Source of the DNA: an uncultured Anaerolineaceae bacterium
Lineage (GTDB): Bacteria > Chloroflexota > Anaerolineae > Anaerolineales > Villigracilaceae
DNA length: 40,068 nucleotides
NCBI GenBank assembly: GCA_964403635.1
Contig: CAYOGW010000005.1
Coordinates: forward strand, 6,289 to 46,356
Direction: 5' to 3'
Both the position numbers and the translations under genes were made by a program. Shown here one piece after another: positions 6,336-37,571 of the stretch (within the stretch, counting starts at the first letter, position 1; every line of letters begins with the position of its first letter). The notes below the pieces were generated by a model that ran no database searches, was not told the DNA's origin, and worked only from the letters and a program-made list of their open reading frames with translations.

Positions 6336-6337
6336 AT

Positions 6338-6367
6338 AAAAAAACCGCCAAAAAGGCGGTTTTTTTA
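6338..6367 (+). terminator. Rho-independent terminator
   Basis: 'aaaaaaccgcc-aaaaa-ggcggttttttt': GC stem ccgcc/ggcgg plus a T-tract. Confidence 0.75.
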
Positions 6368-6410
6368 TTTGCGCATGCACAGACGAAAATTCTGTTATAA
6401 AATCAAATTC

Positions 6411-7826: not shown

Positions 7827-7827
7827 C

Positions 7828-15212: not shown

Positions 15213-15226
15213 TTAATTCACACTTA

Positions 15227-15257
15227 AACAGCCCCTGTATGCAGGGGCTGTTTATTT
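15227..15257 (+). terminator. Rho-independent terminator after fhs
   Basis: Perfect 9-bp stem 'cagcccctg'/'caggggctg' with loop 'tatg', followed by 'tttattttt'. Confidence 0.75.
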
Positions 15258-15306
15258 TTAACCCGCTTTAAACTGATTTCATAATTTTTTATACACGCAG
15301 CAAGAC

Positions 15307-15312
15307 TATAAT
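15307..15312 (+). promoter_or_regulatory. -10-like TATAAT box 7 nt upstream of the wzm ATG (possible leaderless transcript start of the glycan cluster)
   Basis: 'gactataattaattaaATG': tataat at 15307-15312, ATG at 15320, no SD. Confidence 0.3.
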
Positions 15313-15319
15313 TAATTAA

Positions 15320-16147
15320 ATGGATACTCCCCGCTTGCACACCCGTATTTTGCCTGCCAGCCGCCCAACGTTAGGAATAAAAGAGTTATGGGCATACCGA
15401 GAATTGCTTTATTTTATGGTCTGGCGAGATATTAAAGTTCGCTACAAACAAACCTTGTTAGGCGCGGCTTGGGCTATCTTGCAGCCACTTTTAACCATGC
15501 TGGTCTTTAGCTTGTTTTTTGGCAAACTGGCTGGCTTACCTTCAGACGGCATTCCCTATCCCATTTTTAGTTTTGCTGGTCTTGTCCCATGGACATTTTT
15601 TGCCAACGGTTTAACCCAATCTACCGCCAGTTTGGTCAACAGTGCCAACTTAATTAAAAAAGTGTACTTTCCGCGCTTAATTATTCCCATCTCAGCCGTA
15701 CTTTCAGGGCTGGTAGATTTCGCCTTGGCGTTTTTCGTGCTTCTTCTCTTGATGGTCTATTACGGCATACAACTCAACATTAACATTTTTTGGCTGCCGG
15801 TTTTTTTACTGTTAGCCTTAGTTACCTCCCTGGGCGCTGGGTTATGGCTGGCTGCCTTAAACGTCAACTACCGAGATGTTCGCTACATCGCCCCCTTCCT
15901 CGTCCAATTTTGGATGTTTGCTTCACCAGTGGCTTACTCCAGCGGCTTACTTTCAGAACCTTGGCGCACACTGTACGGCATTAACCCGCTGGTTGGCGTT
16001 TTAGACGGCTTCCGCTGGGCTTTACTCGGTATTCAAACCGCCCCCACTGCCATTGTTTGGGTTTCAGCCGCCGCCGCCAGCCTGCTCTTCCTCAGCGGAT
16101 TAATTTACTTTCGCGCCGCCGAAAAAACCTTCGCGGATGTGGTTTAA
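15320..16147 (+). CDS. wzm: ABC-2 type polysaccharide export permease (Wzm / TagG / KpsM family)
   Basis: 'ELLYFMVWRDIKVRYKQTLLGAAWAILQPLLTM' is the canonical ABC-2 N-terminal motif. Six predicted TM helices, 275 aa. Confidence 0.85.
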   Translation: MDTPRLHTRILPASRPTLGIKELWAYRELLYFMVWRDIKVRYKQTLLGAAWAILQPLLTMLVFSLFFGKLAGLPSDGIPYPIFSFAGLVPWTFFANGLTQSTASLVNSANLIKKVYFPRLIIPISAVLSGLVDFALAFFVLLLLMVYYGIQLNINIFWLPVFLLLALVTSLGAGLWLAALNVNYRDVRYIAPFLVQFWMFASPVAYSSGLLSEPWRTLYGINPLVGVLDGFRWALLGIQTAPTAIVWVSAAAASLLFLSGLIYFRAAEKTFADVV

Positions 16148-16149
16148 AA

Positions 16150-17412
16150 ATGAGTAACATAGCCATCTCCGTTCAACAGTTGGGTAAGCAATATACCATC
16201 GGCGAAAAGCAGCCCCCCTATCAAACCCTGCGCGATTCTCTCAGCCGCGCCGCCAACCGCTTGTTCTCGCCCCAACATACAGCATCTACCCGCTCATTTT
16301 GGGCGTTACAAAACATTAATTTTGAAATTAATCAGGGCGATGTGGTCGGGATAATTGGCAAAAACGGAGCTGGAAAAAGCACCCTGCTTAAAATACTTTC
16401 TCGCATTACCGAACCCACCCTTGGGTCTGTAGATTTGTATGGCAAGGTTGGTTCACTTCTGGAGGTAGGTACCGGCTTCCACCCCGAACTTACCGGACGA
16501 GAAAATATATTTTTAAACGGCGCCATTTTAGGCATGCACCAAATAGAAATTAAACAAAAATTAGATGAAATCATCGCCTTTGCCGAAATTGAGCCGTTTA
16601 TAGACACCCCTGTAAAACACTACTCCAGCGGCATGTACTTACGGTTGGCTTTCTCAGTGGCGGCTCATTTAGAGCCAGAGATTCTACTGGTAGACGAAGT
16701 ACTAGCCGTTGGCGATTTGGCTTTTCAAAAAAAATGTCTCGGCAAAATGAGTGCTGTTGCCAAGCAAGGCCGTACGATTTTATTTGTCAGCCACGACATG
16801 ACCAGCATTTCCGTTTTATGCCCCACCGCCATTCTGCTAGAAAAAGGACAAATCAACAAGCAGGGACCCACCCTAGAAGTCATTGCAGATTATTTAAAAA
16901 GTAGCACATCTGAAAATGCGGTTACCCGCTGGGACGAACAAACCGCCCCCGGCAACCAACAAGTGCGATTAATTTTAGTGCAAGCCTGTTTAAACGGTCA
17001 AAATAAACCACAAGAAAACTTCTTCATCGAGCAATCCATTTCGCTTCAACTTAGCTTTAAAGTAACAGCTGGTGCAAAAAAACCGCGATTAAACCCGGTA
17101 TTTCGGGTAAGAAATTTAACCGGTTTAACCATCTTCACCACTGCCAATTATGACGACCCAAGCTGGGGTAAAAAGAAATATGAAAACGGAAACTATCATG
17201 TCAGTTGTAAGATTCCAGCACACCTATTTAATGATGGAACCTATTTAATTGATGTGTTGCTTGTGCACGAAAGCCGCGAGGTCTGGGCAGAAGCCGAAGG
17301 CGCGATTCGATTTTCGGTAGCCGATAACGGCAGCACTCGTGGAGATTATGTGGGCGATTGGCACGGCGCGGTTCGCCCCTATTGCACCTGGAACGGAGAG
17401 AAAATTAATTAA
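16150..17412 (+). CDS. wzt: Polysaccharide export ABC transporter ATP-binding protein with C-terminal carbohydrate-binding domain (Wzt / TagH type)
   Basis: Walker A 'GKNGAGKST', signature 'YSSGM', Walker B 'ILLVDE'. An extra C-terminal beta-rich domain of about 170 aa, as in Wzt proteins that read a terminal cap. Start ATG 16150 lies 2 nt after the wzm stop; the overlapping ORF-track start 16057 was rejected. Confidence 0.85.
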   Translation: MSNIAISVQQLGKQYTIGEKQPPYQTLRDSLSRAANRLFSPQHTASTRSFWALQNINFEINQGDVVGIIGKNGAGKSTLLKILSRITEPTLGSVDLYGKVGSLLEVGTGFHPELTGRENIFLNGAILGMHQIEIKQKLDEIIAFAEIEPFIDTPVKHYSSGMYLRLAFSVAAHLEPEILLVDEVLAVGDLAFQKKCLGKMSAVAKQGRTILFVSHDMTSISVLCPTAILLEKGQINKQGPTLEVIADYLKSSTSENAVTRWDEQTAPGNQQVRLILVQACLNGQNKPQENFFIEQSISLQLSFKVTAGAKKPRLNPVFRVRNLTGLTIFTTANYDDPSWGKKKYENGNYHVSCKIPAHLFNDGTYLIDVLLVHESREVWAEAEGAIRFSVADNGSTRGDYVGDWHGAVRPYCTWNGEKIN

Positions 17413-18191
17413 TGAGTGAAATCCCTGAAAGAATTGTGCCCGGCTCGGCAGACTGGGAACACTACTATTACGAGCACAGCCAGCGCTACGAATTTTTTGC
17501 AGACCAATGCAAAGAAAAAACCGTGCTAGATGCGGCTTGTGGTGTGGGCTATGGTAGCCAACTATTAGCCAAAGCCGGAGCCAAACGTGTGCTGGGGGTA
17601 GATATCTCGGAGGAAGCCATTCAGCTAGCCAAAAGCCAATTTAACGGCGAGAAGGTTTCTTTTGAGCCAGCCGATGTCACTCATCTGCATGTGCCAAATG
17701 ATTCTTTTGATGTAGCCGTTAGTTTTGAAACCCTTGAACACATTGCCAAGCCCGAAGCGTTTGTAAAAGAATTAAAACGGGTGCTAAAACCAAACGGGCT
17801 ATTAATCATCAGCACACCCAACAGCCAGTTTGGCAACAAAAGCCAAACAGCCAACCCCTATCACCTTTCTGAATTAACGTTTAATCAATTTAAACTGTTA
17901 ATTAATCAATATTTTCAGATTGAACAAATTTACGCCCACAGCCATACACCCGCTTATTTAAGACACCTACAATTGCTGGAACATCTGAATCAATTGGATC
18001 GTATGGTTCGCTATAGCCCTTTTATTAAATTAGAAAATACCCTACGGCGTTGGTTAGGGCGTTGGCACAGCCAGTTACCGAACTTTCCGGCTGGGTTGGG
18101 TAATGTGCTGCCCGGCGATTTTGAAATTAAACCAATTAATGAAGGCTTACCAGAACACTTAACTTTTATTATTAAGGCTACCAAAAAATAA
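17412..18191 (+). CDS. Class I SAM-dependent methyltransferase
   Basis: Motif I 'VLDAACGVGYGS', an acidic 'VDIS' motif II, 'LKPNGLLIIST' post-I. Start overlaps the wzt stop by 1 nt. Confidence 0.8.
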   Translation: MSEIPERIVPGSADWEHYYYEHSQRYEFFADQCKEKTVLDAACGVGYGSQLLAKAGAKRVLGVDISEEAIQLAKSQFNGEKVSFEPADVTHLHVPNDSFDVAVSFETLEHIAKPEAFVKELKRVLKPNGLLIISTPNSQFGNKSQTANPYHLSELTFNQFKLLINQYFQIEQIYAHSHTPAYLRHLQLLEHLNQLDRMVRYSPFIKLENTLRRWLGRWHSQLPNFPAGLGNVLPGDFEIKPINEGLPEHLTFIIKATKK

Positions 18192-18192
18192 A

Positions 18193-19386
18193 ATGCCAAA
18201 ACCCCTGCATGTTGCCTTTGTTTCGCAAGAATACCCGCCAGAAACTGGCTGGGGCGGCATTGGCTCGTACACCTACGAAATGGCAAACGGGCTGGCAGAG
18301 ATGGGCGTACAAGTGAGCGTAATTTGCTTGGCGCTAGTACAAGAAACACAAACCCAAGAGAAAAATTTAACCATCTACCGTGTGAGACCAGCCCCCCGCT
18401 GGGAACGCCTGCGCGGCGGCTGGCGGATTAACCGATTTTGGCCGGGTTTTGCTTGGGCAGCTGCTCAGCAACTGAGATTAATTAATCAGACTAAGCCGAT
18501 TGATTTGATCGAATATGCCGAAATTCGCGGCGATGGGTTTTTTCTTCCGTTTTTACTACCAGCCATTAAACGAGTGGTGCGCCTGCATACCGCTTGGATT
18601 TTTGTAGATGAATTAAATAAAATTAAACCCAATACTGCTAAAAAATTAATCTACTGGCAAGAAAAACAAAGTGTTTACGCTGCCCATTCTGTCAGTTCGC
18701 CCAGCCACGCCATGTTTGAAAAAACGCTCACTTGGCTGCCGAGCTTAAAAAAGAAGCCGCGTTTTATTTTGCCAAACCCTGTAGATGCCGAAACCTTTTT
18801 ACCAAAAACCAAAACACCCAAACAACAAGAGATTGTATTCATTGGGCGCCCTGAAATTCGCAAAGGGATTGAAACGCTCACCCAAGCCTTGCCAAATATA
18901 TTAGAAAATAATCCACAGGTTGTCTTTCGTTTAATCAGCGACCCGCAAACCGAATTAATGGGTGAACCCGCACAAGAATGGGTTTTAAAACAAATGCCCC
19001 AAAACCTGCACCCGCGCATCACCTTTGAAGCGGTAACCCGAGACCAATTGCCAAAAACGCTCTCCAGCGCCAGCCTCGCCGTGCTGCCCTCGCTTTGGGA
19101 AAACTTTCCCTACGCGATACTCGAAGCCATGTCTTGCGGCTTGCCTGTAGTGGTTACGCGCATTGGCGGCTTACCAGAAATCGTCACCGATTTAGAAAAC
19201 GGGCTGCTTGTGCCTGTCGGTAACACGGCAGCCCTTAGCCAAGCGGTTACGTCTCTACTGCAAAACCCAACCCTACGCGCCAACTTGGGGGCAGCCGCCC
19301 GCCAACAAGTGTTACAAAATTTCAGCCGAAAGGCGGTATTACCCGCTATGCTTTCTTATTATCAAACCCTTGCGAGCCAGCCATGA
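18193..19386 (+). CDS. GT4-family glycosyltransferase (GT-B fold)
   Basis: N-terminal 'FVSQEYPPETGWGGIGSYTYEMANGLAEMG' and C-terminal 'ENFPYAILEAMSCGLPVVVTRIGGLPEIV' (E-x7-E motif region). Confidence 0.8.
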   Translation: MPKPLHVAFVSQEYPPETGWGGIGSYTYEMANGLAEMGVQVSVICLALVQETQTQEKNLTIYRVRPAPRWERLRGGWRINRFWPGFAWAAAQQLRLINQTKPIDLIEYAEIRGDGFFLPFLLPAIKRVVRLHTAWIFVDELNKIKPNTAKKLIYWQEKQSVYAAHSVSSPSHAMFEKTLTWLPSLKKKPRFILPNPVDAETFLPKTKTPKQQEIVFIGRPEIRKGIETLTQALPNILENNPQVVFRLISDPQTELMGEPAQEWVLKQMPQNLHPRITFEAVTRDQLPKTLSSASLAVLPSLWENFPYAILEAMSCGLPVVVTRIGGLPEIVTDLENGLLVPVGNTAALSQAVTSLLQNPTLRANLGAAARQQVLQNFSRKAVLPAMLSYYQTLASQP

Positions 19387-20291
19387 CCTTAATCAGCGTT
19401 GTCATTTGCACCCATAACCGCGCGCCATATCTGCGCGCCGCCTTACAAAGCCTCAGCCAGCAAAGTATGTCAAAATCTCGCTTCGAGGTGCTGGTCATTA
19501 ACAACGCTTCCAGCGATTCTACGGTTCAAGTTGCTGAGAGCTTTCAGCAGTCATTAAATATAAAATTAATTAACGAACCCAACCTAGGGCTTTCTTTGGC
19601 TCGCAATCGCGGGTTAGAAACCAGTAAAAGCGAAATTATTTGTTATATGGATGACGACGCGATAGCCAGCCGAGATTACTTAAAAGCGATTCTTTCCGCT
19701 TTTCGGGCGGTCTCCCCCCAGCCTGCTCTCGTTGGTGGGAGAGTTTTGCTCCACTGGAACGGCCCGCTGCCCAACTGGCTGCCAGAAAAATATCTCAGCC
19801 TATACTCCATGCTCGATTATGGCGAACAAGCCAAATTTATTTCTGAAAGTGAGTACCTTGTTGGTGCAAACTTCGCTGCTCAAACTAGCTTTCTGCGCAG
19901 CATTGGCGGCTTTCAGCCAAGCCTAGGCCGTCAAGGCGGAAACCTGCTCTCGGGAGAAGAAACGCAGGTTCTGCTGAAGGCCCGTCAATTGGGGTTACCC
20001 ATCTATTATCAACCCAGCGCGTTGGTTTGGCATACGGTTACCCCAGGGCGGAAAACACGCGCCTGGCTACGAAAGCGGATTTTTTGGGATGGCGCTTCTC
20101 AACCCTTAATTAATTGGAAAGCCGAGCAACCAAAAAGTTATTACTTTAAACAAAGCCTCATCGACCTGCGCCGTATGATTCGCTTTTGCTGGGACCTGCT
20201 TCAAGGCTCTCCGGATGCTTTTTATCATTTGATTCAGCGCAGCGGACGGCTGCGCACCCATTTAATGCTGTGGCTGGGAATTAATCGTTAA
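19383..20291 (+). CDS. GT2-family glycosyltransferase (GT-A fold)
   Basis: 'ISVVICTHNRAPYLRAALQSLSQQ' and the 'YMDDDA' DxD motif. Start overlaps the previous stop (ATGA). Confidence 0.8.
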   Translation: MTLISVVICTHNRAPYLRAALQSLSQQSMSKSRFEVLVINNASSDSTVQVAESFQQSLNIKLINEPNLGLSLARNRGLETSKSEIICYMDDDAIASRDYLKAILSAFRAVSPQPALVGGRVLLHWNGPLPNWLPEKYLSLYSMLDYGEQAKFISESEYLVGANFAAQTSFLRSIGGFQPSLGRQGGNLLSGEETQVLLKARQLGLPIYYQPSALVWHTVTPGRKTRAWLRKRIFWDGASQPLINWKAEQPKSYYFKQSLIDLRRMIRFCWDLLQGSPDAFYHLIQRSGRLRTHLMLWLGINR

Positions 20292-20292
20292 G

Positions 20293-22947
20293 ATGCATAT
20301 TTGTTTTGTCTCTTTAGATTATCCTTCGGAAACTTCTGGCGGCGGCGTAGGAACAATTATGCAGCTGCTGGCAAAGGGATTTTCAGAAGACTGTCAACAA
20401 GTCAGTGTGATTGCGCTTCAACAAGAAGGTGAAGCCCCTTTCTCGCGGGATGGCGATGTGCTTATTTGGCGGTTTAAACCTTCTCACTTGCATTGGTATG
20501 TTTCAAAAATTCCATGGCTGGGAAAGAACTTAAGCCCCGTGGTGAGAGAATTAGAACGAAGCTGGGGCGCTTGGCGGCTGCTACAAAAAATTAATCAACA
20601 AAAAGAAGTTCATGCCGTTGAATTAATTGAAACCGGCGGGCTGTTTATTTCGCTTTTAGAAAGAGCCAAATTAATCGCGGTGCGCTTACACGGCGAACAA
20701 TATACTTTTCAAAAATATACACCTTTCCTTCAACTCAATTGGGGGTTAAAACTCACCCGTTTCATCCAACGTGTTGCCATCCGCAATGCCAATTTAAGAA
20801 TTTCCCCCAGCCACTGGCACGCCCAAGAAATTGCTGAAGAAACCGGTTTAAATAAGCAATCTATTCTGGTTTTATCGAATGCCATTGCTATTCCAACCAA
20901 GTTTCAGTTTTCAAATAATCACGCCAACCCTTTAATTCTTTTTGCTGGACGTTTAGAGCAATTAAAAGGTGTGCCATTGTTATTAGAAGCGTTTGCTTTA
21001 CTGCGAAAAGAAATGCCGCATGTTCGGCTTGCCTTAGCAGGAACATCTCACCCCAGCTTGCCAGAAAGCCAATTGAAAGAACTCATCCATCAATACCACC
21101 TTGAAAAATCAGTTCAACTGCTGGGATACATCCCCAACCAACAGTTAAAAGATTGGTTTAAAAAATCATCTGCGCTGGTGCTGCCTTCGTATTACGAAAG
21201 CTTTGGCTTAGCCGCCTTAGAAGCCATGGCGCACGGTTTACCAGTGGTTGCCTCTACAGCGGGCGCTTTACCCGAATTAATTAAAGAGAATGAAACTGGC
21301 TTGTTATTTAAAAGCGGAGACGCGCAAGCTTTGGCTGGTCAACTAAAAAAAATATTAAGTAGCCCCAAGCTACAAAAGCATTTGGCAAAAAATGCTCACC
21401 GCTTTAGTTTGCAACACTTTAATGCAAAAGAAAGCATTCTGCAAAACTTAACCCTTTATAAAAATAACTTAAAAATCCCGCCAAGCCCCAAACATGTGTT
21501 TTTTTCTCCACATTTGGATGATGTCATCCTTTCGTGCGGTGGAACAGTGAAAGAATTAAATAAAAACGCGCCTGTTGAAGTGGTGACAGTTTTTAGCGGT
21601 CAACCCAAAACCGCCGCAATAGGCACATTTGCAGAACACATTCATGCCAAGTGGAACTTGCCGCCGCAGACCGCAATTCTTTCTCGCCGCGATGAAGACC
21701 TGCTGGCTTTTTCAATTCTGTCTCCTACTATCCAAGTGACCCATTGGGGTTATCTAGAGGCGTTATACCGTCAGGAAAAAAACCACCAACCCCTGCATTC
21801 CGCTTATCAAAGCCTGCGTGGACCTCTACATCAGCAAGAAGAAGCCTTGATACCAACCCTTGTTTCACAAATCGAAAACCATTATTCAAAAGAAAATCAA
21901 CTTTATTTTCCAATGGGTTTGGGCACTCATGTAGACCACCGCATCTTATTTAAAACAGGCTACCAATTAAATCAACGGGGCTGGCCAGTGTTTTTTTATG
22001 AAGACTGGCCCTATGCAGAAAATTACGAACCTATTAGTAAGAAAAATTGGCAAGTTCTTGATCAACCAATTTCGCTTACCGAAAAAATTAAAGCGGCCGA
22101 AGCCTATGGATCTCAGCAAAAAGGGCTTGGGTATAGCCTAGCCGACCGATTAACAAACTATGCTCATCAAAACAAAAACCCATTGAAGACCAGTGAACGC
22201 ATTTGGCAGGCACAGCCCAACGATGAAGAAGTACCATTTAAACTCAAAAAGAAACAATGGCAGCTTGCCGATTTTTTAATTTTTTATAAAAGCCTTAACT
22301 GGAGAGATCTCTCCGAGCGGCTGCCGTTGGGCAGCGGTTACTGTTTAGATATTGGCAGTGGCAGCGGCAGAAACCAAGTAGCCATTGAAACCAAAGGTTA
22401 CACTTGGCTAGGGCTGGATTTAAACCGTCAGCGGAGGCAACACCTGCAAGCCAGCGCCAGCCGCCTGCCGGTAGCCAGCCAAAGCGTTGAGGCGGCTATT
22501 CTTTGGCAAGTGCTAGAATATCTCGAAAACCCTCAACAAGCGTTAGCAGAAGCCATCCGCACTTTAAAACCTGGCGGCGTGCTCTGCGGTAGCGTTTCAT
22601 TTTTAGAGCCGGTTCATGGACAAACCTATTATGGCATCAGCCATCACGCCATTCAAAAATTATTAATAGACCAACCTTTGCTGGATATTCAGATTCAGCC
22701 GGGCATTTCTGGCTTTACCCTGCTGATATGGACCTGGCTTAATCGTCTAGGCTTAAGCAGGCTAAGCGGATTGTGCCTGCCGTTATCGAGGTTTTTTTTG
22801 GTGCCCCCAGCCGCTTTGCTATTTTTGGTCAGTTGGCTGCAATGGCGGTTAGGCTGGGGCAGCGGGCATTTTATGGCGTGGCTGACAGAACGCGCCCCGC
22901 TGGAATTTGCAGGGCATATTCACTTTATTGCCAGAAAAGCAAGCTAA
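20293..22947 (+). CDS. Tri-domain enzyme: GT4 glycosyltransferase / LmbE(PIG-L)-family N-acetylglucosaminyl deacetylase / class I SAM methyltransferase, with C-terminal hydrophobic segment
   Basis: aa 1-390 GT4 ('ESFGLAALEAMAHGLPVVASTAGALPELI'). aa ~400-640 LmbE-like ('VFFSPHLDDVILSCGG' resembling the HPDDE zinc motif, and 'GLGTHVDHR' resembling HxDH). aa ~650-884 MTase ('CLDIGSGSGRN', 'LKPGGVLCGSV'), followed by a hydrophobic tail. Confidence 0.75.
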   Translation: MHICFVSLDYPSETSGGGVGTIMQLLAKGFSEDCQQVSVIALQQEGEAPFSRDGDVLIWRFKPSHLHWYVSKIPWLGKNLSPVVRELERSWGAWRLLQKINQQKEVHAVELIETGGLFISLLERAKLIAVRLHGEQYTFQKYTPFLQLNWGLKLTRFIQRVAIRNANLRISPSHWHAQEIAEETGLNKQSILVLSNAIAIPTKFQFSNNHANPLILFAGRLEQLKGVPLLLEAFALLRKEMPHVRLALAGTSHPSLPESQLKELIHQYHLEKSVQLLGYIPNQQLKDWFKKSSALVLPSYYESFGLAALEAMAHGLPVVASTAGALPELIKENETGLLFKSGDAQALAGQLKKILSSPKLQKHLAKNAHRFSLQHFNAKESILQNLTLYKNNLKIPPSPKHVFFSPHLDDVILSCGGTVKELNKNAPVEVVTVFSGQPKTAAIGTFAEHIHAKWNLPPQTAILSRRDEDLLAFSILSPTIQVTHWGYLEALYRQEKNHQPLHSAYQSLRGPLHQQEEALIPTLVSQIENHYSKENQLYFPMGLGTHVDHRILFKTGYQLNQRGWPVFFYEDWPYAENYEPISKKNWQVLDQPISLTEKIKAAEAYGSQQKGLGYSLADRLTNYAHQNKNPLKTSERIWQAQPNDEEVPFKLKKKQWQLADFLIFYKSLNWRDLSERLPLGSGYCLDIGSGSGRNQVAIETKGYTWLGLDLNRQRRQHLQASASRLPVASQSVEAAILWQVLEYLENPQQALAEAIRTLKPGGVLCGSVSFLEPVHGQTYYGISHHAIQKLLIDQPLLDIQIQPGISGFTLLIWTWLNRLGLSRLSGLCLPLSRFFLVPPAALLFLVSWLQWRLGWGSGHFMAWLTERAPLEFAGHIHFIARKAS

Positions 22948-22948
22948 C

Positions 22949-25281: not shown

Positions 25282-25284
25282 ACG

Positions 25285-29666: not shown

Positions 29667-30715
29667 AAACCAAACAACCGTTAGTCAGCATTGTCATCCC
29701 CATCCGCAATGGAGAGAAACATATCGGCGAAACCCTGCGAGCCATTTGCAGCCAAGATTACCCGCTTAAGCGGATGGAAGTTTTGGTTGTAGACGGCCTG
29801 TCTACCGATGGAACACGCATAGTGGTAGAACAAACTGCCAGCCAAAATCCGAACTTATTAATTAAATTTTTAATTAATCAAAAACAAATAACCCCCTGTG
29901 CATTAAATATTGGCATTTTACAATCGCATGGCGATTTCATCCTGCGGGTTGATAGCCGCACCCAAATTGCGGTGGATTATGTTTCGGCATGTGTGGCGGC
30001 TCATTTGCGCAGCGGCGCAGAAAATGTGGGCGGGCCGCTCACTTCACAAGGGTTAACCTTGTTCGGAAAAGCCTCGGCGTTGGCAACCAGTGACCGTTTT
30101 GGAGTTGGCAATGCACTCCACCATTATGCAAAAGAAGATGTGTGGGCAGATACGGTTTACATGGGTGCTTGGCCGCGCACCGTTTTTGAAAAAATAGGGC
30201 TTTTTGACGAGGAACAAGTGCGCAACCAAGACGATGAATTTAATTATCGTCTGCAAGCCGCGGGCGGGCGTATTTTGGTTTCACCCCTCATTAAATTAAT
30301 GTACACCGTTCGAACCGATTCTCCTGCTCAACTGTGGCAGCAATTTTATGAATATGGCTTTTGGAAAGTGCGCGTTTGGCAAAAACACCCAAGCCAAATT
30401 CGCCCCCGCCAATTCATTCCTCCGCTATTTGTTTTTTGTCTTTTCATCGGCTTAATCATTAGCCTTCTATATCCAATAGCTTGGTTTTTATGGCTGCCCG
30501 TTTTCTCTCTTTACCTTATTCTTAATTTATTTTCATCCATTGCCATTGCACACCAAACCAACTGGAACGTACTGCCAGTATTACCCATTGCCTTTGCCAT
30601 GCTGCACTTTGGCTATGGCTCAGGGCTGCTGTGGGGGTTAATTAAATTTGCAAACCACTGGCAAGACCGCCAAGGAATTATTCCCAGCCTCCCCAAAAAA
30701 GAAGCCCATGAATAA
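29663..30715 (+). CDS. GT2 polyprenyl-phosphate glycosyltransferase, GtrB/ArnC-like, with C-terminal TM helices
   Basis: 'VSIVIPIRNGEKHI...VVDGLSTDGT' and 'DDEFNYRL' fit a GT-A domain. Two C-terminal TM helices ('FIPPLFVFCLFIGLIISLLYPIAWFLWLPVFSLYLILNLFS') are characteristic of GtrB-type enzymes. Confidence 0.7.
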   Translation: MKTKQPLVSIVIPIRNGEKHIGETLRAICSQDYPLKRMEVLVVDGLSTDGTRIVVEQTASQNPNLLIKFLINQKQITPCALNIGILQSHGDFILRVDSRTQIAVDYVSACVAAHLRSGAENVGGPLTSQGLTLFGKASALATSDRFGVGNALHHYAKEDVWADTVYMGAWPRTVFEKIGLFDEEQVRNQDDEFNYRLQAAGGRILVSPLIKLMYTVRTDSPAQLWQQFYEYGFWKVRVWQKHPSQIRPRQFIPPLFVFCLFIGLIISLLYPIAWFLWLPVFSLYLILNLFSSIAIAHQTNWNVLPVLPIAFAMLHFGYGSGLLWGLIKFANHWQDRQGIIPSLPKKEAHE

Positions 30716-31412
30716 CGACTTCGAACGACTACAAAAAGAATACCTAGCGCGAGAAAATCGCTTTGCAAACGACTCTCGATATTCACCTTTTAATCAAGAA
30801 TATTTGTTTACAAAGAGCCAACTTAATCGCCATCTCTTAAACATGCTCTCCAAACACGGGGTTCAAAACCTCGGCACTTCTAAAATTTTAGAAGTAGGCT
30901 GCGGAACCGGCGGCGTTTTAGTAGATTATTTAAGCTATGGAGCATCAGCCAATCACATTCACGGGGTAGATGTACTGCCCCACCGGCTGACCCAAGCCCG
31001 CAGCCGCCTTCCGTTTTTACAAATATCCCAAGCGGATGGTATCGCCCTGCCATTCGCTGCCGAACAGTTTGATATTGTCTGCCAATACACCATGTTTTCA
31101 TCCATTTTAGACGAATCCATTAAACAAAAAATTGCCCAAGAAATGCTCAGAGTGCTTAAAACAAACGGCATCTTAATTTGGTACGACTTCTGGTGGAACC
31201 CAACCAACCCAGCCACAAAAGGCATTCGCCAATTAGAAATTAAACTGTTATTTGCACCATTTAAAACATCCATCCAGCGGGTTACCTTAGCGCCGCCCAT
31301 CGCAAGGAAAACCGTGCCATTCTCTTGGGGCTTCTCGCTCATGCTAGAAAACCTGAAAATCTTCAACAGCCATCTTTTAGTGGTTATCCGCAAGGATTCT
31401 GCAATTGATTAG
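30706..31412 (+). CDS. Class I SAM-dependent methyltransferase
   Basis: 'ILEVGCGTGGVLVDYL' motif I and 'LKTNGILIWYDF' post-I. Start 30706 (MNNDFERLQ) overlaps the previous stop by 10 nt; the ORF track's GTG 30648 lies deeper inside the upstream gene. Confidence 0.7.
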
Positions 31413-31482
31413 CCCGATGTTGCAATGTTCTTATACGCATTGAATTGGCATAATGGGGCTACTCTATAAAGGAAAGACGCTT

Positions 31483-32994
31483 ATGAAAAGTTTACCCATT
31501 ACACGCCCAATTATCCAAATTGAAGAAAACGCCGGCCTGCAAAAATGGATTAATGTTGTCCTTAAACGCAGTTTCGATATCTTTGCTTCTCTGTTTGGGC
31601 TTTTGCTTCTTGCTCCATTTTTTGTATTAATTGGCTTCTTTATAAAACGCGAATCTCCCGGCCCGGTCTTCTTTAAAGGGCCTCGCATGGGCAAAAACCA
31701 ATCTATTTTTTACATTTGGAAATTCCGCACCATGTACGAAAGAGTAGAAAGTTATGAAGGGCCTTCCATCACAGCCAAAGGAGATGCCCGTATCACACCC
31801 CTTGGTCACTGGTTACGATTAACAAAAATAAACGAATTACCTCAATTAATTAATGTTTTGTTTGGGGAAATGAGTTTGGTTGGGCCTCGCCCTGAAGTGC
31901 CAGAAATTGCCCAAGACTGGCCCAAAGACGCCAAGCGAGAAGTGCTTTCCGTTCAACCTGGCATTACCAGCCCCGCTTCTATTCTCTATCGAGATGAAGA
32001 AGCTATGTTAATTGGCAATAACAGCATGGATGATTACCTGCGAAAAATATTGCCAGATAAACTTCGCCTCGACCAGCTTTATGTTCGCAATCACACCTTC
32101 TTATCCGATTTAGATGTCATTTTGATGACATTAATCGTGCTGCTGCCAACTGTTCGCAACACACCCATTCCTGAAGCGCGCTTATACGTTGGTCCACTTT
32201 CTATCTTTACCCACCGCATCTGGAATTGGTTTGTCATTGACAGCTTAATTGCTTTTACTGCCATCGCCGCCGCAGGTATTTTGTGGCGCACAGGCGGCCC
32301 GCTAGAACTAGGCGTTGATGTAGCCCTATTGGTGGGGTTAATCATGGCATTAATATTCAGCCTATCAAATTATCTCTTAGGCCTGCATCGTGTCGCTTGG
32401 AGATACGCCCCACCGGCTCTGGCGATTGACTTGGCATTTTCTGGCTTCTTAGCCACCCTAAGCATTGTTGCAGTTAATTTCTCGTGGCCTGGGCAGCAAC
32501 TGCCACTAGGAATGCTTTTATTTTCTGGCTTTTTCACCTTTATCGGTTTTACAGCCGCCCGCTACCGCGAGCGCCTTCTTATGGGCTTGGCCTCCCGCTG
32601 GGTATACCACCGTAACCGCTTTAGCCCGATTGGCGAACGTGTCTTAATTGTTGGCGCCGGTGAATATGGTCAAATGGCCGCTTGGCTTATGCAAAAAAGC
32701 GCCTTCGCTTCGGCTTATGTAATTTTAGGCATGGTCGACGATGACATTCACAAACAAGGCATGTTAATTGACGGTTACCCGGTAGTTTGCGGCTCACGAG
32801 AATTAGCCCGCATGGTTAAAGACAAAGATGTAGGTTTAATTTTATTTGCCATCTCAAACATTAATCCGCGAGAACGAGAGCGAATTTTAAACATCTGCCG
32901 CAAAACCAACGCAAGGGTTGTCATCATGCCCGATATTTTGCAAATTTTACACACCCAATTAGCACAAGAGACTCCTTACCAAACCTATGCCTAA
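31483..32994 (+). CDS. Polyprenyl-phosphate phosphoglycosyl transferase (bacterial sugar transferase family) with atypical order: catalytic domain, then 4 TM, then Rossmann-like domain
   Basis: N-terminal 'KRSFDIFASLFGLLLLAPFFVLIGFFIKRESPGPVFFKGPRMG...FYIWKFRTM...NELPQLINVLFGEMSLVGPRPEVPE' is the PGT catalytic core. Four TM helices then follow, then 'LIVGAGEYGQMAAWLM...ILGMVDDD', which resembles the cytoplasmic Rossmann-like domain of WbaP/PglF-type proteins. SD 'ggaaag' before ATG 31483. Confidence 0.75.
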   Translation: MKSLPITRPIIQIEENAGLQKWINVVLKRSFDIFASLFGLLLLAPFFVLIGFFIKRESPGPVFFKGPRMGKNQSIFYIWKFRTMYERVESYEGPSITAKGDARITPLGHWLRLTKINELPQLINVLFGEMSLVGPRPEVPEIAQDWPKDAKREVLSVQPGITSPASILYRDEEAMLIGNNSMDDYLRKILPDKLRLDQLYVRNHTFLSDLDVILMTLIVLLPTVRNTPIPEARLYVGPLSIFTHRIWNWFVIDSLIAFTAIAAAGILWRTGGPLELGVDVALLVGLIMALIFSLSNYLLGLHRVAWRYAPPALAIDLAFSGFLATLSIVAVNFSWPGQQLPLGMLLFSGFFTFIGFTAARYRERLLMGLASRWVYHRNRFSPIGERVLIVGAGEYGQMAAWLMQKSAFASAYVILGMVDDDIHKQGMLIDGYPVVCGSRELARMVKDKDVGLILFAISNINPRERERILNICRKTNARVVIMPDILQILHTQLAQETPYQTYA

Positions 32995-34150
32995 CCCATC
33001 TGCATCATCCCCCCAATGGCGGGTACCGCTCGCCGAAGTAGACTTTGGTCCCGAAGAACCCGCTGCTGTTTTAGCCGTTTTAAAGAGCCGTTGGCTTAGC
33101 ATGGGTGCTGTTACTAAAGCCTTCGAAGATGAGTTCGCAGCCTTTTGCGGTGCAAAACACGCTTTTGCCCTCACCAATGCCACAGCCGCCCTGCATCTCT
33201 CTTGCTTGGCAGCTGGCGTAGGCAGCGGAGATGAAGTCATTCTCCCGAGTCTTACCTTTGTTGCCACTGCCAACGCTATTCGATACACTGGCGCAAAACC
33301 GGTTTTCGCAGATGTGAACAGCTTAAACGACTGGACATTATCACCTGAAGCAGCAGAAGCCTTAATTACCCCCCGTACGCGTGCCATCATGCTCATGCAC
33401 TACGCGGGTTACGCATGCAATATCTCTGCTTTTCAAGCGCTTGCCGAGAAGCACAATTTAATTTTATTAGAAGATGCAGCCCATGCTGTAGGCGGCACCC
33501 TCAACAATCAGCATCTTGGAACGTTTGGACAAAGCGGCAGTTATAGCTTCTTTCCGAACAAAAATATGACCACCGCCGAAGGCGGCATGTTGGTTACCAA
33601 CGATGATGCCATCGCCGAAAAATTTCGCATCCTGCGCTCGCACGGCATGACCAGCCTAACCTGGGACCGCCACCGCGGTCACGCTTTCAGTTACGATGTT
33701 GTTGATTTAGGTTATAACTACCGAATGGATGAGTTAAGGTCTGCCTTAGGGCGGGTTCAACTTAACAGAATAACAGCAGGCAACCAAAAGCGCCGCCAGC
33801 TCACCGAGCAATATCGCAGCCAATTAAATGGTCTACAAATTCCATTTGATCATCACACCGGTACATCGGCCTGCCATATATTGCCCGCTTTATTACCCGA
33901 AGGCGTTAACCGAAATCGATTTATGGAAGTGATGAAAGAAAACGGGATTCAAACCAGCATTCACTACCCGCCCATCCATACATTTAGTGAATTTAACAGG
34001 CAGACTCCCGAAGGCCGCCTACCCATTACCGAAGCCATTGGCCAGCGAGAAGTAACCCTGCCGCTCTTCCCCGCCATGAGCGCAGAACAATTAAACTGGG
34101 TTATCTCAGCGGCGAAAGACGCGTTAGAAACTTGTTTGCAAGAAGGATAA
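32987..34150 (+). CDS. DegT/DnrJ/EryC1/StrS-family PLP-dependent sugar aminotransferase
   Basis: 'DEVILPSLTFVATANAIRYTGAKPVFADV', 'LEDAAHAVGG' and 'SFFPNKNMTTAEGGM' (PLP-lysine region, aligned by context). Confidence 0.85.
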   Translation: MPNPSASSPQWRVPLAEVDFGPEEPAAVLAVLKSRWLSMGAVTKAFEDEFAAFCGAKHAFALTNATAALHLSCLAAGVGSGDEVILPSLTFVATANAIRYTGAKPVFADVNSLNDWTLSPEAAEALITPRTRAIMLMHYAGYACNISAFQALAEKHNLILLEDAAHAVGGTLNNQHLGTFGQSGSYSFFPNKNMTTAEGGMLVTNDDAIAEKFRILRSHGMTSLTWDRHRGHAFSYDVVDLGYNYRMDELRSALGRVQLNRITAGNQKRRQLTEQYRSQLNGLQIPFDHHTGTSACHILPALLPEGVNRNRFMEVMKENGIQTSIHYPPIHTFSEFNRQTPEGRLPITEAIGQREVTLPLFPAMSAEQLNWVISAAKDALETCLQEG

Positions 34151-34158
34151 TGAATTAA

Positions 34159-36036
34159 ATGGAAATTAAGTTTTATATTGCCATTCTTAAACGCTGGGCT
34201 TGGTTGCTCATCGCTGGCTTAATCATAAGCAGCTTATTGGGGTATGGTATTTCACTTTTAGAAACCCCCACCTACCAAGCCAGTACCAAAGCGTTGGTTA
34301 TGCGCCCTTCGCAAAATAACAGCACCGAATTGGGTTATTTATCTGACCAGCAATTGGTGCAAACCTTTATGCAGCTATTAACCACCACTCCAGTGGTCGA
34401 TACCGCATCGCAGCGATTAAGCTTCCCCATTGACCGAACCAAAATAACCGTTCAGCAAGTGCGCGATACCCAAGTGATTTTGGTAACAGTTGAAGACACC
34501 GAACCTTTACGCGCAGCCATGATTGCTAATGTGATGGTAGAAGTATTGGTCGAACAAAATGAAAACCTGCAATCTGGGCGATACCTTTCGATTGAAGAAT
34601 CATTAAACAGCCAAATTTCTCAAGTAGAAGCTCAAATTAACGAATTACAACTAGAAATTGACCAAATTTCTACTGCGCGCGTACAAGACCAAACCGACCA
34701 AATTCAGGCACAAATTAACACATTACAAAGCCAAATTGTGGCCTTAGAAAGTGAAAATGGGCGATTATCTGCCGCACCGGCACAAAACGCATCTCAAATT
34801 GCTGAAAATAATGCCCGCATTGCTCAAAGTAAATCCCTGCTCAATGTCTATCAAGAAATTTTTACCAACTTGGTCATTTTGGGTAAACCGGCAGAAAGTT
34901 CCGGGTCAGATTATGTCACCCGCTTACAATCTACCTTAAAACTATATCAAGAAATTTATTTGCAATTGCTCACCAACCTAGAGAATGTACGCCTTGCTCG
35001 GCTGCAAAACACCCCTAACTTGGTTCAAATTGAAAAAGCAGAAGTGCCTTTTATACCCATTAGCCCCAAGCCTTTTGTTAACATGGCCATTGCCGGAGCG
35101 ATTGGTTTAATGCTGGCCGCCAGCGGCGTGTTTATTTACGAATATTTAAATGACACACTGCGTACCCCTCATGATGTTGAGAAGATGCTCGACTTGCCAG
35201 TCTTAGGCTATATCTCAGAAATGACAAACACAGCCGAAAATAAAGTAACCGGTTTAACCGTTTTAGACCAGCCTCGGTCGCCCATTTCTGAAGCCTTTCG
35301 TGTGCTGCGAACTAATTTAGAATTCGCAGCAACGGACCAAGCCTTACAAACCCTGCTGGTTACCAGTTCACGCCCATCCGAAGGAAAAACAACCGTAGCC
35401 GCCAACCTAGCCGCCAGCTTTGCTCAGCGCGGAAAGCGCGTTTTATTGGTAGATTGTGACCTGCGCAGACCCGCAGTTCACCGCATCATGCGCATCCCAA
35501 ACCGAACCGGTTTAAGCACCCTCTTCCGCGGAGAAGTTCACCTCGATGCGGTAATCCGTAATATCGAAAACGGCATCACAGAAATTGGTGTTATTACCAG
35601 CGGAAGTATTCCCGCCAATCCCGCAGAGTTATTACAGTCGGACCGCATGTTAATGATTTTGGCAGAATTAAGAAACGCAGCCGATATTATCATATTAGAC
35701 AGCCCCCCCATTATGCTGGCAGATGCTCAAGTGTTAGCCGCTTTGGTAGATGGTGTAATTTTAGTGATGCAGCCCGGCCGCTCCAAAAACGAAGAATCTC
35801 GCTCCACTCTTGCGCAACTTAATCGCGCGGGCGCGCGGGTATTGGGTACTGTCTTTAATCGAATACCCAAAGACAACCGAGAATATTATGGCGGCTACCA
35901 ATACTATTCTACTGAAGGCTACGGGGCATACGCATCCCCTACTGACCGCCCTATCCAAACCATTTCTACCTATAAAGAGCCTTCTACCCGCCCGAACTTA
36001 AATCCAACCAACTCACATCGCCGATCCAATAGGTAA
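34159..36036 (+). CDS. wzc: Polysaccharide co-polymerase fused to bacterial tyrosine autokinase (Wzc-type; Wzz domain + BY-kinase + C-terminal Tyr cluster)
   Basis: TM1 'WAWLLIAGLIISSLLGYGISLL', a long coiled-coil ecto-domain, TM2 'MAIAGAIGLMLAASGVFIY'. Kinase Walker A 'SSRPSEGKTTVAANLAASFA', Walker A' 'VDCDLRRP', Walker B 'IILDSPP'. Tyr-rich tail 'EYYGGYQYYSTEGYGAY'. Confidence 0.85.
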   Translation: MEIKFYIAILKRWAWLLIAGLIISSLLGYGISLLETPTYQASTKALVMRPSQNNSTELGYLSDQQLVQTFMQLLTTTPVVDTASQRLSFPIDRTKITVQQVRDTQVILVTVEDTEPLRAAMIANVMVEVLVEQNENLQSGRYLSIEESLNSQISQVEAQINELQLEIDQISTARVQDQTDQIQAQINTLQSQIVALESENGRLSAAPAQNASQIAENNARIAQSKSLLNVYQEIFTNLVILGKPAESSGSDYVTRLQSTLKLYQEIYLQLLTNLENVRLARLQNTPNLVQIEKAEVPFIPISPKPFVNMAIAGAIGLMLAASGVFIYEYLNDTLRTPHDVEKMLDLPVLGYISEMTNTAENKVTGLTVLDQPRSPISEAFRVLRTNLEFAATDQALQTLLVTSSRPSEGKTTVAANLAASFAQRGKRVLLVDCDLRRPAVHRIMRIPNRTGLSTLFRGEVHLDAVIRNIENGITEIGVITSGSIPANPAELLQSDRMLMILAELRNAADIIILDSPPIMLADAQVLAALVDGVILVMQPGRSKNEESRSTLAQLNRAGARVLGTVFNRIPKDNREYYGGYQYYSTEGYGAYASPTDRPIQTISTYKEPSTRPNLNPTNSHRRSNR

Positions 36037-36041
36037 CCCGT

Positions 36042-36545
36042 ATGCCATCTGTATTATTTGTCTGCCGCGCCAATCAATTTCGTTCTCCCATCGCGGCAGC
36101 GTGTTTTGAAAGAAAATTAAAAAGCCTAAACTGGAAACAAACTTGGGTCATTGACAGCGCTGGTACTTGGGCGTCAGATGGCCTAGCTGTTGCAGCCTTA
36201 CCCAAACAAGTTGCCAACCAATTAGGGCTTTCATTAGAAACTCATATTGCGAACTTAATCACTGCCGAGTTATTAGAAAAATTTGACTTAATTCTGGTGA
36301 TGGAAGATGGACAAAAAGAAGCCCTGTGGGTTGAATTTCCTGAAGCACAGAACAGAATTAAAATGTTAACCGAATTAGTTAGCAATGAAAGCTATAACAT
36401 CATCGACCCAGATGGCGAAAGCCTAGAGTTTAGCCAAGCCCTCGCCGAAGAAATATGCCGATTAATTGAAAGTGGATTTTTTAGAATTGTTACACAAGCC
36501 TTAACGCTACACAGTATGCGCTTAAAAACACAAGTCTTTAATTAA
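36042..36545 (+). CDS. Low-molecular-weight protein tyrosine phosphatase (Wzb-like)
   Basis: P-loop 'VLFVCRANQFRSPIA' (C-x5-R-S) and the Asp loop 'IIDPDG'. 167 aa, immediately after the BY-kinase gene. Confidence 0.7.
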   Translation: MPSVLFVCRANQFRSPIAAACFERKLKSLNWKQTWVIDSAGTWASDGLAVAALPKQVANQLGLSLETHIANLITAELLEKFDLILVMEDGQKEALWVEFPEAQNRIKMLTELVSNESYNIIDPDGESLEFSQALAEEICRLIESGFFRIVTQALTLHSMRLKTQVFN

Positions 36546-36557
36546 GCAGGAGTAAAA

Positions 36558-37571
36558 ATGAAAATCTCATCAAACACTTGGTTACTTTTTACCTTAATCG
36601 CTTTAGTCGCTTCGGCTTGTATCGGTGGCTTTATATTTGTAAGCCAGTTTTTGCAAACAGGCGCACCCCTTAACGTAAACACCAACCCAACCCTACTGCC
36701 TACCACAGTGGCATTAACTGTGCTTAATACACCTACCTTGGTAGCAGAAAATACGGCTACATCCATCCCACCGGTAGGCACTTGTGGACAAACCGGAAAA
36801 AATCAAGTCTTAATTGTCGTTTTTGCCAGCGCTGGTGAAGAGCCTGTCGGATCAGAAGCCATTTATCTAATTCAAGCCAATTATGCCAACCCACAAATTA
36901 AAGGGCTTGCCTTCGACCGTGAATTAACGGTACAAACCCCCAGCCAATCAGGCTACCCAAGTAGCACTGCCAAATTAAACGACCTGTATAATTTTCGCTT
37001 AAACCAATTCGGCGGCGTAAGCCAACCACAAGCCCACCCCGGCGCTGTAAATTTAATCTCGCAGGCTATTTTTGACAATTATGGTTTAGTACCTAATAAT
37101 TACATTGCCTTTGATGCCTTAATGTTGCCCAACATTGTTAATGCCATTGGCGGGCTGGATGTAAACCTTCCGGCTGCCTACCGATACGGTGCTTTTTCTG
37201 TTCCTGCAGGCGTTCAAAAATGGAATGGAGCAACCACCCTTGCTTATGTCAGCGCCTTGGCAGATAACGAAACAGAAGTTCAGCGGCGTGAAAGGCAAAT
37301 ATTGGTATTAAACGCTTTATTGCTGAACCCAACCTTTATTGGTCGCTTACCAGAATTAACTGACCGAATTAAAAACAGCATCATCACCGATTTAGATGCC
37401 ACCCAAATTACCAACCTAGCCTGCTTAGCCAGCCAACTGGGCTCCTTTGATGCCCCCATTACAAGCGTCAATGGGGATAATGGCGTCCGAAAGCCAGATG
37501 GCAGTATTTCATTCTTTTTAGCAAGTGATTTAAAAGCCTATCTTCTGGAGTGGCAAGGGCAACTCCCTTAA
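36558..37571 (+). CDS. LytR-CpsA-Psr (LCP) family glycopolymer-to-peptidoglycan ligase
   Basis: N-terminal TM anchor, then 'VLIVVFASAGEE...AIYLIQANYAN' and 'AYVSALADNE...ERQILVLNALL', consistent with the LCP catalytic domain pattern (moderate similarity). SD 'aggagt' upstream. Confidence 0.55.
   Translation: MKISSNTWLLFTLIALVASACIGGFIFVSQFLQTGAPLNVNTNPTLLPTTVALTVLNTPTLVAENTATSIPPVGTCGQTGKNQVLIVVFASAGEEPVGSEAIYLIQANYANPQIKGLAFDRELTVQTPSQSGYPSSTAKLNDLYNFRLNQFGGVSQPQAHPGAVNLISQAIFDNYGLVPNNYIAFDALMLPNIVNAIGGLDVNLPAAYRYGAFSVPAGVQKWNGATTLAYVSALADNETEVQRRERQILVLNALLLNPTFIGRLPELTDRIKNSIITDLDATQITNLACLASQLGSFDAPITSVNGDNGVRKPDGSISFFLASDLKAYLLEWQGQLP

Follow-up and report, generated by a model that had tools for sequence, protein, structure and literature searches.

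The subject of this analysis is a run of 19 consecutive plus-strand open reading frames (ORFs) at positions 15320-37571 of a 40-kb stretch of DNA (40,068 nt in full, referred to as the window) from an uncultured Anaerolineaceae bacterium of the phylum Chloroflexota. The cluster is interpreted, with moderate confidence, as a cell-surface glycan locus that is mainly dependent on an ATP-binding cassette (ABC) exporter of the S-layer glycan (slg) or O-antigen type, and that carries a WaaL-like ligase together with a separable, kinase-regulated initiation module. Most of the cluster fits known ABC-exporter pathways, and the departures are the tyrosine-kinase module and the non-canonical phosphoglycosyl transferase (PGT) and LCP proteins. 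The pairing of the exporter proteins Wzm and Wzt with a bacterial tyrosine kinase (BY-kinase), which recurs in related Chloroflexota loci, is unusual because BY-kinases of the polysaccharide co-polymerase (PCP) class PCP-2 are assigned to Wzy-dependent systems, with ABC-dependent capsules described in Gram-negatives only, in a 2025 review (PMC12220298).

Domain annotation of all 19 products with Pfam and NCBIfam profiles identified Wzm, Wzt, three methyltransferase domains and nine Leloir glycosyltransferase (GT) domains, comprising six GT4 and three GT2, as well as PIG-L, Wzy_C, a Bac_transf PGT, DegT, a Wzz-GNVR-BY-kinase, a low-molecular-weight phosphotyrosine phosphatase (LMW-PTP) and LCP. 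An earlier sequence-only reading had named the Wzm, Wzt, Wzy_C, Wzc, LMW-PTP and LCP domains and three methyltransferase domains, all of which were recovered by these searches, while its ten GT domains correspond to the nine Leloir domains plus the PGT. The tight co-directional packing that it described, with one exception of about 70 nt before the PGT, was also borne out by the ORF map. After the starts of Wzt (16150), GT4b (22949), MT3 (30708) and PGT (31483) had been corrected via orthologues and internal Met codons, the junctions are overlaps or gaps of at most 14 nt, with the 70 nt between MT3 and PGT as the sole exception.

The exporter is encoded by the first two genes, which are 2 nt apart and whose closest PDB relatives are WzmWzt, TarH/TagH and RfbE. 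Wzm (15320-16147) is an ABC-2 permease (PF01061, 82 bits) with 61% identity to the homologue in L004, a distant metagenomic relative of the locus. Wzt (16150-17412, starting at Met32 of its ORF) carries an ATPase domain (PF00005, ABC_tran, 78 bits) and a probable C-terminal carbohydrate-binding domain, and its residues 48-373 align to full-length Wzt bearing such a domain (8dku/7k2t, E 1e-67) in an alignment that reaches residue 351 of 404. The next gene encodes the S-adenosylmethionine-dependent methyltransferase MT1 (17412-18191; Methyltransf_11, 93 bits), a candidate chain-end cap. As the Wzt binding domain adjoins a methyltransferase, and the Wzt-MT1 adjacency is kept in L004 with 50% identity for MT1, the chains are probably exported in finished, capped form. 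The O8/O9a and slg systems operate in this way (PMC2943079).

Downstream of MT1, the chain-building enzymes begin with GT4a (18193-19386; Glycos_transf_1, 114 bits) and GT2a (19383-20291; Glycos_transf_2, 94 bits), followed by an 884-aa fusion (20293-22947) of GT4, PIG-L de-N-acetylase and methyltransferase, whose Pfam domains span residues 1-390, 403-556 and 674-768, and by GT4b (22949-24121; Glycos_transf_1, 145 bits; Met15 of an ORF from 22907). The PIG-L motifs SPHLDD and HVDH are intact in the fusion and its C-terminal segment is hydrophobic, pointing to a single polypeptide that adds an amino sugar, removes its N-acetyl group and possibly methylates it. A scan of genome contigs with the fusion protein matched only a GT4 of Flavobacterium, which was judged irrelevant. 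The best match to the fusion in L004 covers the GT4 domain only and lies within separate GT4 genes of ~400 aa. A syntenic core is then shared with four related loci (L002, L004, L006 and L007), consisting of GT4c (24118-25281; 40-47% identical), the Wzy_C protein, GT4d (26721-27869; 40-44%), GT2b (27866-28681; 56-61%, the best-conserved gene of the block) and GT4e (28668-29666; 43-56%), all assigned by Pfam. The block is completed by GT2c (29663-30715), a GT2 enzyme with two predicted C-terminal transmembrane (TM) helices, and by the methyltransferase MT3 (30708-31412). A GtrB/ArnC-like polyprenyl-phosphate GT assignment was considered for GT2c and not adopted, the ArnC matches in the PDB being weak (25 bits).

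A Wzy_C-type ligase is the usual partner of ABC export. The Wzy_C protein of the window (25285-26724, GTG start) is a polytopic membrane protein that matches PF04932 at 43.7 bits against a cut-off of 31.7. A sequence-level PDB search gave no match. A Foldseek search with the AlphaFold2 model of the protein (pLDDT 84, pTM 0.86) gave a single significant PDB match, WaaL (7tpg; E 6e-7, target TM-score (TMt) 0.66), with FtsW next. Residues R277, R325, R337 and the H380-N-D motif are invariant across 15 family members, and their spacing appears compatible with the WaaL/PglL triad. WaaL ligases and PglL O-oligosaccharyltransferases (O-OTases) both belong to PF04932 and share an essential Arg/Arg/His triad (R215, R288 and H338 in Escherichia coli WaaL; PMC3643930).

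The Wzy-dependent logic proposed by the sequence-only reading was not supported by this comparison or by the search for a Wzx flippase. No Wzx was found in the 40-kb window, where the polytopic ORFs are the Wzy_C protein and the PGT only, and neither Polysacc_synt nor MurJ was matched among the 19 products. Wzx is likewise absent from the four Wzy_C-centred loci L002, L004, L006 and L007. A TM screen combined with Pfam over 733 kb of 80 related loci gave 18 polytopic ORFs, none of them a Wzx: 12 Wzy_C, one PMT_2, one LPG_synthase_TM, three without a match and one MatE, the last being the sole match to the MOP superfamily. Because of the missing Wzx, the WaaL fold match, the PF04932 membership and the Wzt binding domain beside a methyltransferase, the Wzy_C protein is more likely to be a WaaL/PglL-like en-bloc ligase acting after Wzm/Wzt export than a polymerase. 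Some related Wzy_C/GT loci also encode PMT_2 (GT-C) membrane glycosyltransferases (L006:5989-7830, 14637-16667 and 16819-18090; L015:3111-4364), a sign that polyprenyl-phosphate sugars may serve for extra-cytoplasmic glycosylation in some variants.

The 80 related loci were collected by an alignment scan with the PGT family, and rates are given among the loci with enough flank to be informative. In L004, whose PGT, Wzt and Wzy_C are 45%, 57% and 43% identical to those of the window, the order is Wzm, Wzt, MT, GTs, Wzy_C, GTs, GT2, MT, PGT, sugar-nucleotide genes, DegT and Wzc, at 42-61% identity. A TPR protein lies between Wzm and Wzt in this locus, reminiscent of WsaA in slg loci. DegT stands downstream of the PGT in 28/29 loci, a GT2c homologue directly upstream of it in 20/40 and an MT3 homologue upstream in 19/58, and Wzc is present at any position in 11/24. 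Where the upstream flank measures 7 kb or more, 11 of 23 loci have a Wzy_C gene ahead of the PGT, in the same orientation and 2.4-9 kb away, compared with 4.8 kb in the window. A tblastn count of Wzy_C near the PGT in 0/80 loci was discarded as an artefact of divergence, since the TM screen with Pfam found 12; a purpose-built Wzy_C HMM also missed most of them. LCP is linked to the PGT family in a single one of 18 informative loci, and by profile HMM only in L011 and L080. Wzc, PGT, DegT, Wzm and Wzt occur together in L017 and L034 with a gene order that differs from the window; that of L017 is Wzc, a LysM protein, PGT, dehydratase, NTP-transferase, DegT, Wzm, Wzt, GNAT and three GT4s.

Downstream of the PGT, four genes complete the cluster. 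The first encodes a DegT-family sugar aminotransferase (32987-34150; PF01041, 388 bits). In most PGT-family loci (including L012, L017 and L004), genes for an RmlB-like dehydratase and an RmlA-like nucleotidyltransferase are located between PGT and DegT; both are missing from the window and its sister genomes, in which DegT overlaps the PGT, so that the amino-sugar pathway is locally incomplete. The following Wzc-type protein (34159-36036) is a fused PCP/BY-kinase with Wzz, GNVR and TIGR01007 (178 bits) matches, TM helices at residues 16-34 and 309-327, intact Walker A (GKT, 409-411), A' (VLLVDCDLR, 428) and B (IIILDSPP, 510) motifs, and seven Tyr residues within 574-592 of its C-terminal tail. 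The Wzb-like LMW-PTP (36042-36545; PF01451, 80 bits) contains the CX5RS signature as CRANQFRS at residues 8-15 and a DP loop at 132-133. In Staphylococcus aureus, phosphorylation of the monotopic PGT CapM by CapAB leads to a four-fold stimulation of priming (PMC6441080), and by this analogy Wzc would have a plausible role that requires no Wzy.

The last gene (36558-37571) encodes an LCP-domain protein (PF03816, 52.7 bits against a cut-off of 24.6) with a single N-terminal TM helix at 10-28. An alignment of 61 family members keeps the GxD, GAD, PRD, YxR and RxxRQ motifs, and the family profile matches TagV, LcpA and Cps2A at E 1e-21 to 1e-30. In Cps2A, D234 and D246 form the Mg-coordinating Asp pair and R267, R362 and R374 bind phosphate (PMC7831098). 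The window protein has Ala90 and Glu100 at the positions of the Mg-ligand Asp residues, which are Asp in 77% and 93% of the 61 relatives, and Ser232 in place of the YxR Arg (equivalent to R362 of Cps2A). The same Ala, Glu and Ser substitutions are found in the sister orthologue P0258. R121, R243, R246 and Q247 are retained, and the Cys pair C76/C289 is invariant in the family. The sequence-only reading was thus right about the LCP domain, but its corollary, covalent attachment of the product to peptidoglycan, is weakened by the loss of a Mg-ligand Asp and a phosphate-binding Arg, which are defining residues of the active site, and attachment by this protein appears not secure.

In the pathway that these components would form, a polyprenyl-linked primer would be made first and extended in the cytoplasm to a hetero-glycan by the nine GT domains, with de-N-acetylation of an amino sugar by the PIG-L domain and modification of the chain by the methyltransferases. 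MT1, encoded beside Wzt, would probably cap the non-reducing end, after which the C-terminal domain of Wzt would recognise the finished chain for export by Wzm/Wzt. Outside the membrane, the Wzy_C protein may move the glycan en bloc from its lipid carrier to an acceptor, for which a protein, a lipid and a further polymer of the wall are candidates. The five-gene 3' module (PGT-like protein, DegT, Wzc, LMW-PTP and LCP) is predicted to supply an amino-sugar step, and Tyr phosphorylation may control initiation or precursor flux, as CapAB acts on CapM, so that Wzc would not serve as a Wzy co-polymerase. LCP may attach some of the product to the wall in spite of its degenerate active site.

Several observations weigh against this pathway. 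The Wzt_C match in Wzt scores 28.5 bits, below the Pfam cut-off of 30.4. Wzm/Wzt were found in only 4/80 PGT-family loci, at varied positions, in flanks of at most 10 kb, whereas they are 16 kb from the PGT in the window. The PGT aligns with its motif KINELPQL against SLDELPQL of PglC/WbaP, with Asn replacing the catalytic Asp, and without this nucleophilic Asp the identity of the glycan-priming enzyme is unclear. Wzy_C was the sole Pfam family matched by the Wzy_C protein at E <=0.01, and since PglL_A (PF15864) and PglL_B were not matched, it is not a PglL-type O-OTase by the Pfam criterion. No Wzy structure is among the PDB matches, so fold and motifs cannot split ligase from polymerase; nine GTs and a PCP-type Wzc would suit a large repeat unit polymerised extracellularly as well; and no acceptor protein, whether S-layer or pilin-like, is evident near the cluster.

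A true hybrid, the strong form of the sequence-only reading, is an alternative in which Wzm/Wzt would replace Wzx and flip repeat units or blocks, the Wzy_C protein would polymerise them with Wzc as co-polymerase or chain-length regulator, and LCP would ligate the polymer to peptidoglycan. Such an arrangement was judged unlikely, in spite of a number of features that suit it. Wzy_C, the PCP-2-type Wzc and the phosphatase are all intact, nine GT domains fit a large repeat unit, the Wzy_C gene resides within the conserved GT core as wzy genes do, and Wzy_C upstream of the PGT and Wzc each occur in nearly half of the informative loci (11/23 and 11/24), always without Wzx. The C-terminal binding domain of Wzt with its adjacent methyltransferase, however, points to export of finished capped chains, and both the PF04932 membership and the fold similarity to WaaL speak for a ligase or OTase. 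The ligation step would fall to an LCP with a degenerate active site and a PGT linkage seen in 1/18 informative loci, to which the profile HMM adds the sister L011 only, and Wzc has a documented non-polymerase role in PGT regulation (PMC6441080).

Whether the cluster is one system or two was addressed by two sister genomes, L011 and L008, in which the gene for formyltetrahydrofolate synthetase (FTHFS) that precedes the cluster is 88-89% identical and the upstream synteny is retained, while the first 14 cluster genes are absent. The order in L011 is FTHFS, PGT, DegT, Wzc, LMW-PTP and LCP, followed by unrelated iron-uptake genes; in L008, a galactokinase gene lies between FTHFS and PGT. The DNA homology between window and sisters ends at 15212 and restarts at ~31390. 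The FTHFS/PGT junction accordingly has three states, namely the 14-gene block (window 15213-31390), ~65 nt (L011:3267-3331) and galactokinase (L008:11912-13150), and behaves like a variable glycan slot flanked by conserved DNA. The gene order that the sequence-only reading had proposed to compare among relatives is kept from Wzm to Wzc in the distant L004 and not in the close sisters, which are without the first 14 genes.

The 70-nt intergenic region before the PGT (31413-31482) contains a promoter-like element of ~45 nt (TTGCAATGTTCTTATACGCAT..GGCATAATGGGG) that is conserved in the window, L011:3350-3416 and L008:13165-13240, where coding DNA is only ~70% identical. It was not found in the wider PGT family beyond these three close genomes and matched no Rfam family. 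As the five-gene tail is free-standing in the sisters and has its own conserved upstream element, it is a separable unit with its own probable promoter, and upstream read-through is possible. The view of a single glycan locus thus holds for the tight packing but not for an indivisible 19-gene unit. Recent insertion of the 16-kb block was rejected as the polarity of the change, given that GT2c-MT3-PGT adjacency and an upstream Wzy_C are common in distant loci and that the sisters retain a recognisable remnant of ~20 nt from the 3' end of MT3; most likely, the sisters have lost or replaced the 14-gene block.

Separability could go further and mean two independent neighbours, with the ABC/GT/Wzy_C block of 14 genes primed from elsewhere and PGT-DegT-Wzc-PTP-LCP serving a different wall polymer. 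This alternative is also held to be rather improbable. It would account for the five-gene module following FTHFS without the block in L011 and L008, and for the upstream element and 70-nt gap that the module keeps. The block also seems strain-variable, since its Wzy_C has no homologue in the database closer than 51% identity, whereas the genes of the module share 72-81% identity with their sister orthologues (LCP least, at 52%), and in L006 the Wzy_C core is followed by GT2c and MT3 with no adjoining PGT. On the other hand, the 14-gene block encodes no initiating transferase, no terminator-like hairpin is present in the 70-nt gap between MT3 and PGT, and homologues of GT2c and MT3 abut the PGT in the distant loci at the rates given above, with L004 maintaining the order from Wzm to Wzc. 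A single pathway with a separable initiation module is preferred.

The PGT-like protein (31483-32994; Bac_transf, PF02397, 181 bits) differs from its characterized relatives in two respects, the dyad and the domain order. An Asp-Glu dyad and a covalent intermediate are described for all monotopic PGTs (PMC10519829), whereas this protein has an Asn-Glu dyad. No variation at the Asn is seen among four orthologues or 31 aligned relatives, and 113 of the 120 best homologues have it as well; of the seven others, six did not fit the motif pattern and one was hit at a wrong site. The 120 homologues are ~505 aa each and the named ones are nearly all from Chloroflexota. Asn-type PGTs are located at 31483-32994 in the window, L008:13241-14761, L011:3417-4934 and L004:16247-17977. 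The catalytic-core motifs (re-entrant helix, KFRTM and PRP) are present and the other active-site motifs are conserved in the clade. Because the Asn and these motifs are invariant in more than 100 homologues at 50-80% identity, strong selection on the active site is indicated.

In Lg-PGTs of the WbaP type, a bundle of four TM helices and PF13727 are N-terminal to the catalytic core (PMC10312794). The predicted order in the window protein is the catalytic core at 38-231, four TM helices at 259-368 and PF13727 at 316-493, by which the protein is circularly permuted relative to the Lg-PGT layout. In a Foldseek search of its model, the N-terminus matches PglC (E 3e-12, TMt 0.75-0.78) and the C-terminal domain matches Rossmann folds of the Rex/3nkl type. 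A bolder proposal, offered only tentatively and considered doubtful, is that Anaerolineae-type Chloroflexota possess a distinct glycan assembly in which a permuted Asn-Glu PGT with non-covalent or otherwise altered priming would operate with a BY-kinase/PCP, a Wzy_C enzyme and Wzm/Wzt, and with no Wzx.

The least probable explanation is a partly vestigial tail, with the Asn-dyad PGT and the LCP as pseudo-enzyme scaffolds or regulators and canonical paralogues elsewhere that prime and ligate: the Asp-to-Asn exchange, the Mg-ligand and phosphate-binding residues missing from the LCP of both window and sister, and the low conservation of LCP within the module are what it would predict, but it is very unlikely given the invariance of the PGT active site, the intact and syntenic ORFs of both proteins, and the R121, R243, R246, Q247 and Cys-pair residues that LCP keeps.

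Among the known systems, the closest resemblance is to the slg loci of Geobacillus stearothermophilus NRS 2004/3a and Paenibacillus alvei, whose standard architecture comprises Wzm/Wzt, a methyl-capping multi-domain enzyme, a WbaP-type PGT and the Wzy_C O-OTase WsaB (PMC2943079). Shared features are the monoderm host, tight gene packing with overlaps, wzm/wzt placed ahead of the GTs, putative methyltransferase capping, a multi-domain methyltransferase-GT enzyme, a Wzy_C transferase (WsaB/WsfB), no Wzx, and a WbaP-family PGT where an ABC pathway normally has WecA. Different from slg loci, the 40-kb window has no S-layer protein gene or rml genes and adds the BY-kinase, LMW-PTP and LCP; its multi-domain enzyme is GT4/PIG-L/methyltransferase rather than methyltransferase-GT-GT, its PGT is permuted with an Asn-Glu dyad, and its GT domains, nine in number, are many more.

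The Gram-positive CpsA-E and CapA-C capsule loci (PMC12220298, PMC6441080) similarly group an LCP, a tyrosine phosphatase, a PCP with BY-kinase and a monotopic PGT. They are Wzx/Wzy-dependent, however, whereas the window is without Wzx and would export via Wzm/Wzt; moreover, its kinase is fused (PCP-2a-like), its phosphatase is an LMW-PTP instead of the PHP type, the gene order is reversed and the LCP is degenerate. The fusion of slg and capsule logic put forward earlier can therefore be kept in part. The slg-like features (Wzm/Wzt, methyltransferases, WbaP-family PGT and Wzy_C protein) and the capsule-like ones (PGT, BY-kinase, phosphatase and LCP) are all present, and such parts co-occur repeatedly in the lineage, but a Wzx/Wzy pathway is not among them.

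The rhamnose-rich cell-wall polysaccharide loci of Firmicutes, namely Lactococcus cwps, Enterococcus epa and streptococcal rgp/gac (PMC9574508), are likewise from monoderm hosts and produce an ABC-exported polymer that is ligated to peptidoglycan by LCP. Single loci of this kind encode, besides the ABC exporter, Wzz-like proteins and membrane proteins of an extra-cytoplasmic polymerase or ligase type. In contrast to the window, they have second-chain flippases, GT-C enzymes and a TagO/WecA-type initiator, and no BY-kinase or tyrosine phosphatase; the lcp genes of L. lactis are not near the cwps cluster (PMC9574508). The E. coli O8/O9a type of ABC-dependent O-antigen with WaaL (7tpg) shares Wzm/Wzt with a Wzt C-terminal domain and, on the reading preferred here, methyl-type termination and a post-export Wzy_C-family ligase. 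It differs in that the window comes from a monoderm without a lipid A-core acceptor, has its ligase gene inside the locus and adds the BY-kinase, phosphatase and LCP.

The cluster is delimited on the left by a terminator-like hairpin after FTHFS (15225-15254, plus strand), with a 13-bp stem containing 7 GC pairs and a following T-run, and an equivalent hairpin is present 3' of FTHFS in the sister genomes. A promoter-like site before wzm (15258-15285, plus strand) reads TTAACC-16-CATAAT and is a consensus match only (9/12), the total of such sites being no higher than in shuffled controls; the promoter scan was consequently dropped as operon evidence in either direction. On the right, a convergent minus-strand gene (37636-39729) encodes a 697-aa product in which N-terminal Ig-like domains (Big_3_5, He_PIG) are fused to a C-terminal sortase domain, with no counterpart at that position in L011.

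Relatives of FTHFS (13302-15212) at 81-82% identity belong, wherever named, to Anaerolineales/Chloroflexota, which places the source organism in the same group. The protein has 636 aa against 556 positions of the Pfam profile, and the long form is common to Anaerolineales relatives, which suggests a lineage-specific insertion. Further upstream, the window begins within a Ser/Thr protein kinase gene (66-644), and a small co-directional group within 5589-9399, consisting of a 248-aa GT2, a Band_7/SPFH protein and a 523-aa membrane protein without a Pfam match, is kept in L008.

As filamentous bacteria, Chloroflexota abound in sludge, sediments and soils, and their surface polymers are believed to help shape the flocs and granules there (PMC9942424). 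Knowledge of their envelope glycans is scant, and the locus offers a concrete, testable gene set for them. The textbook split, in which BY-kinase/PCP-2 proteins accompany Wzx/Wzy and ABC exporters do without them (PMC12220298), fails in this phylum. The Asn-type PGTs form a clade without a residue that is regarded as universal in its superfamily. If a distinct Chloroflexota assembly were real, it would represent a further combination of known parts together with a new mechanistic PGT subclass, and activity of the Asn enzyme, if it exists, would mean that the proposed covalent-intermediate mechanism does not apply throughout the PGT superfamily.

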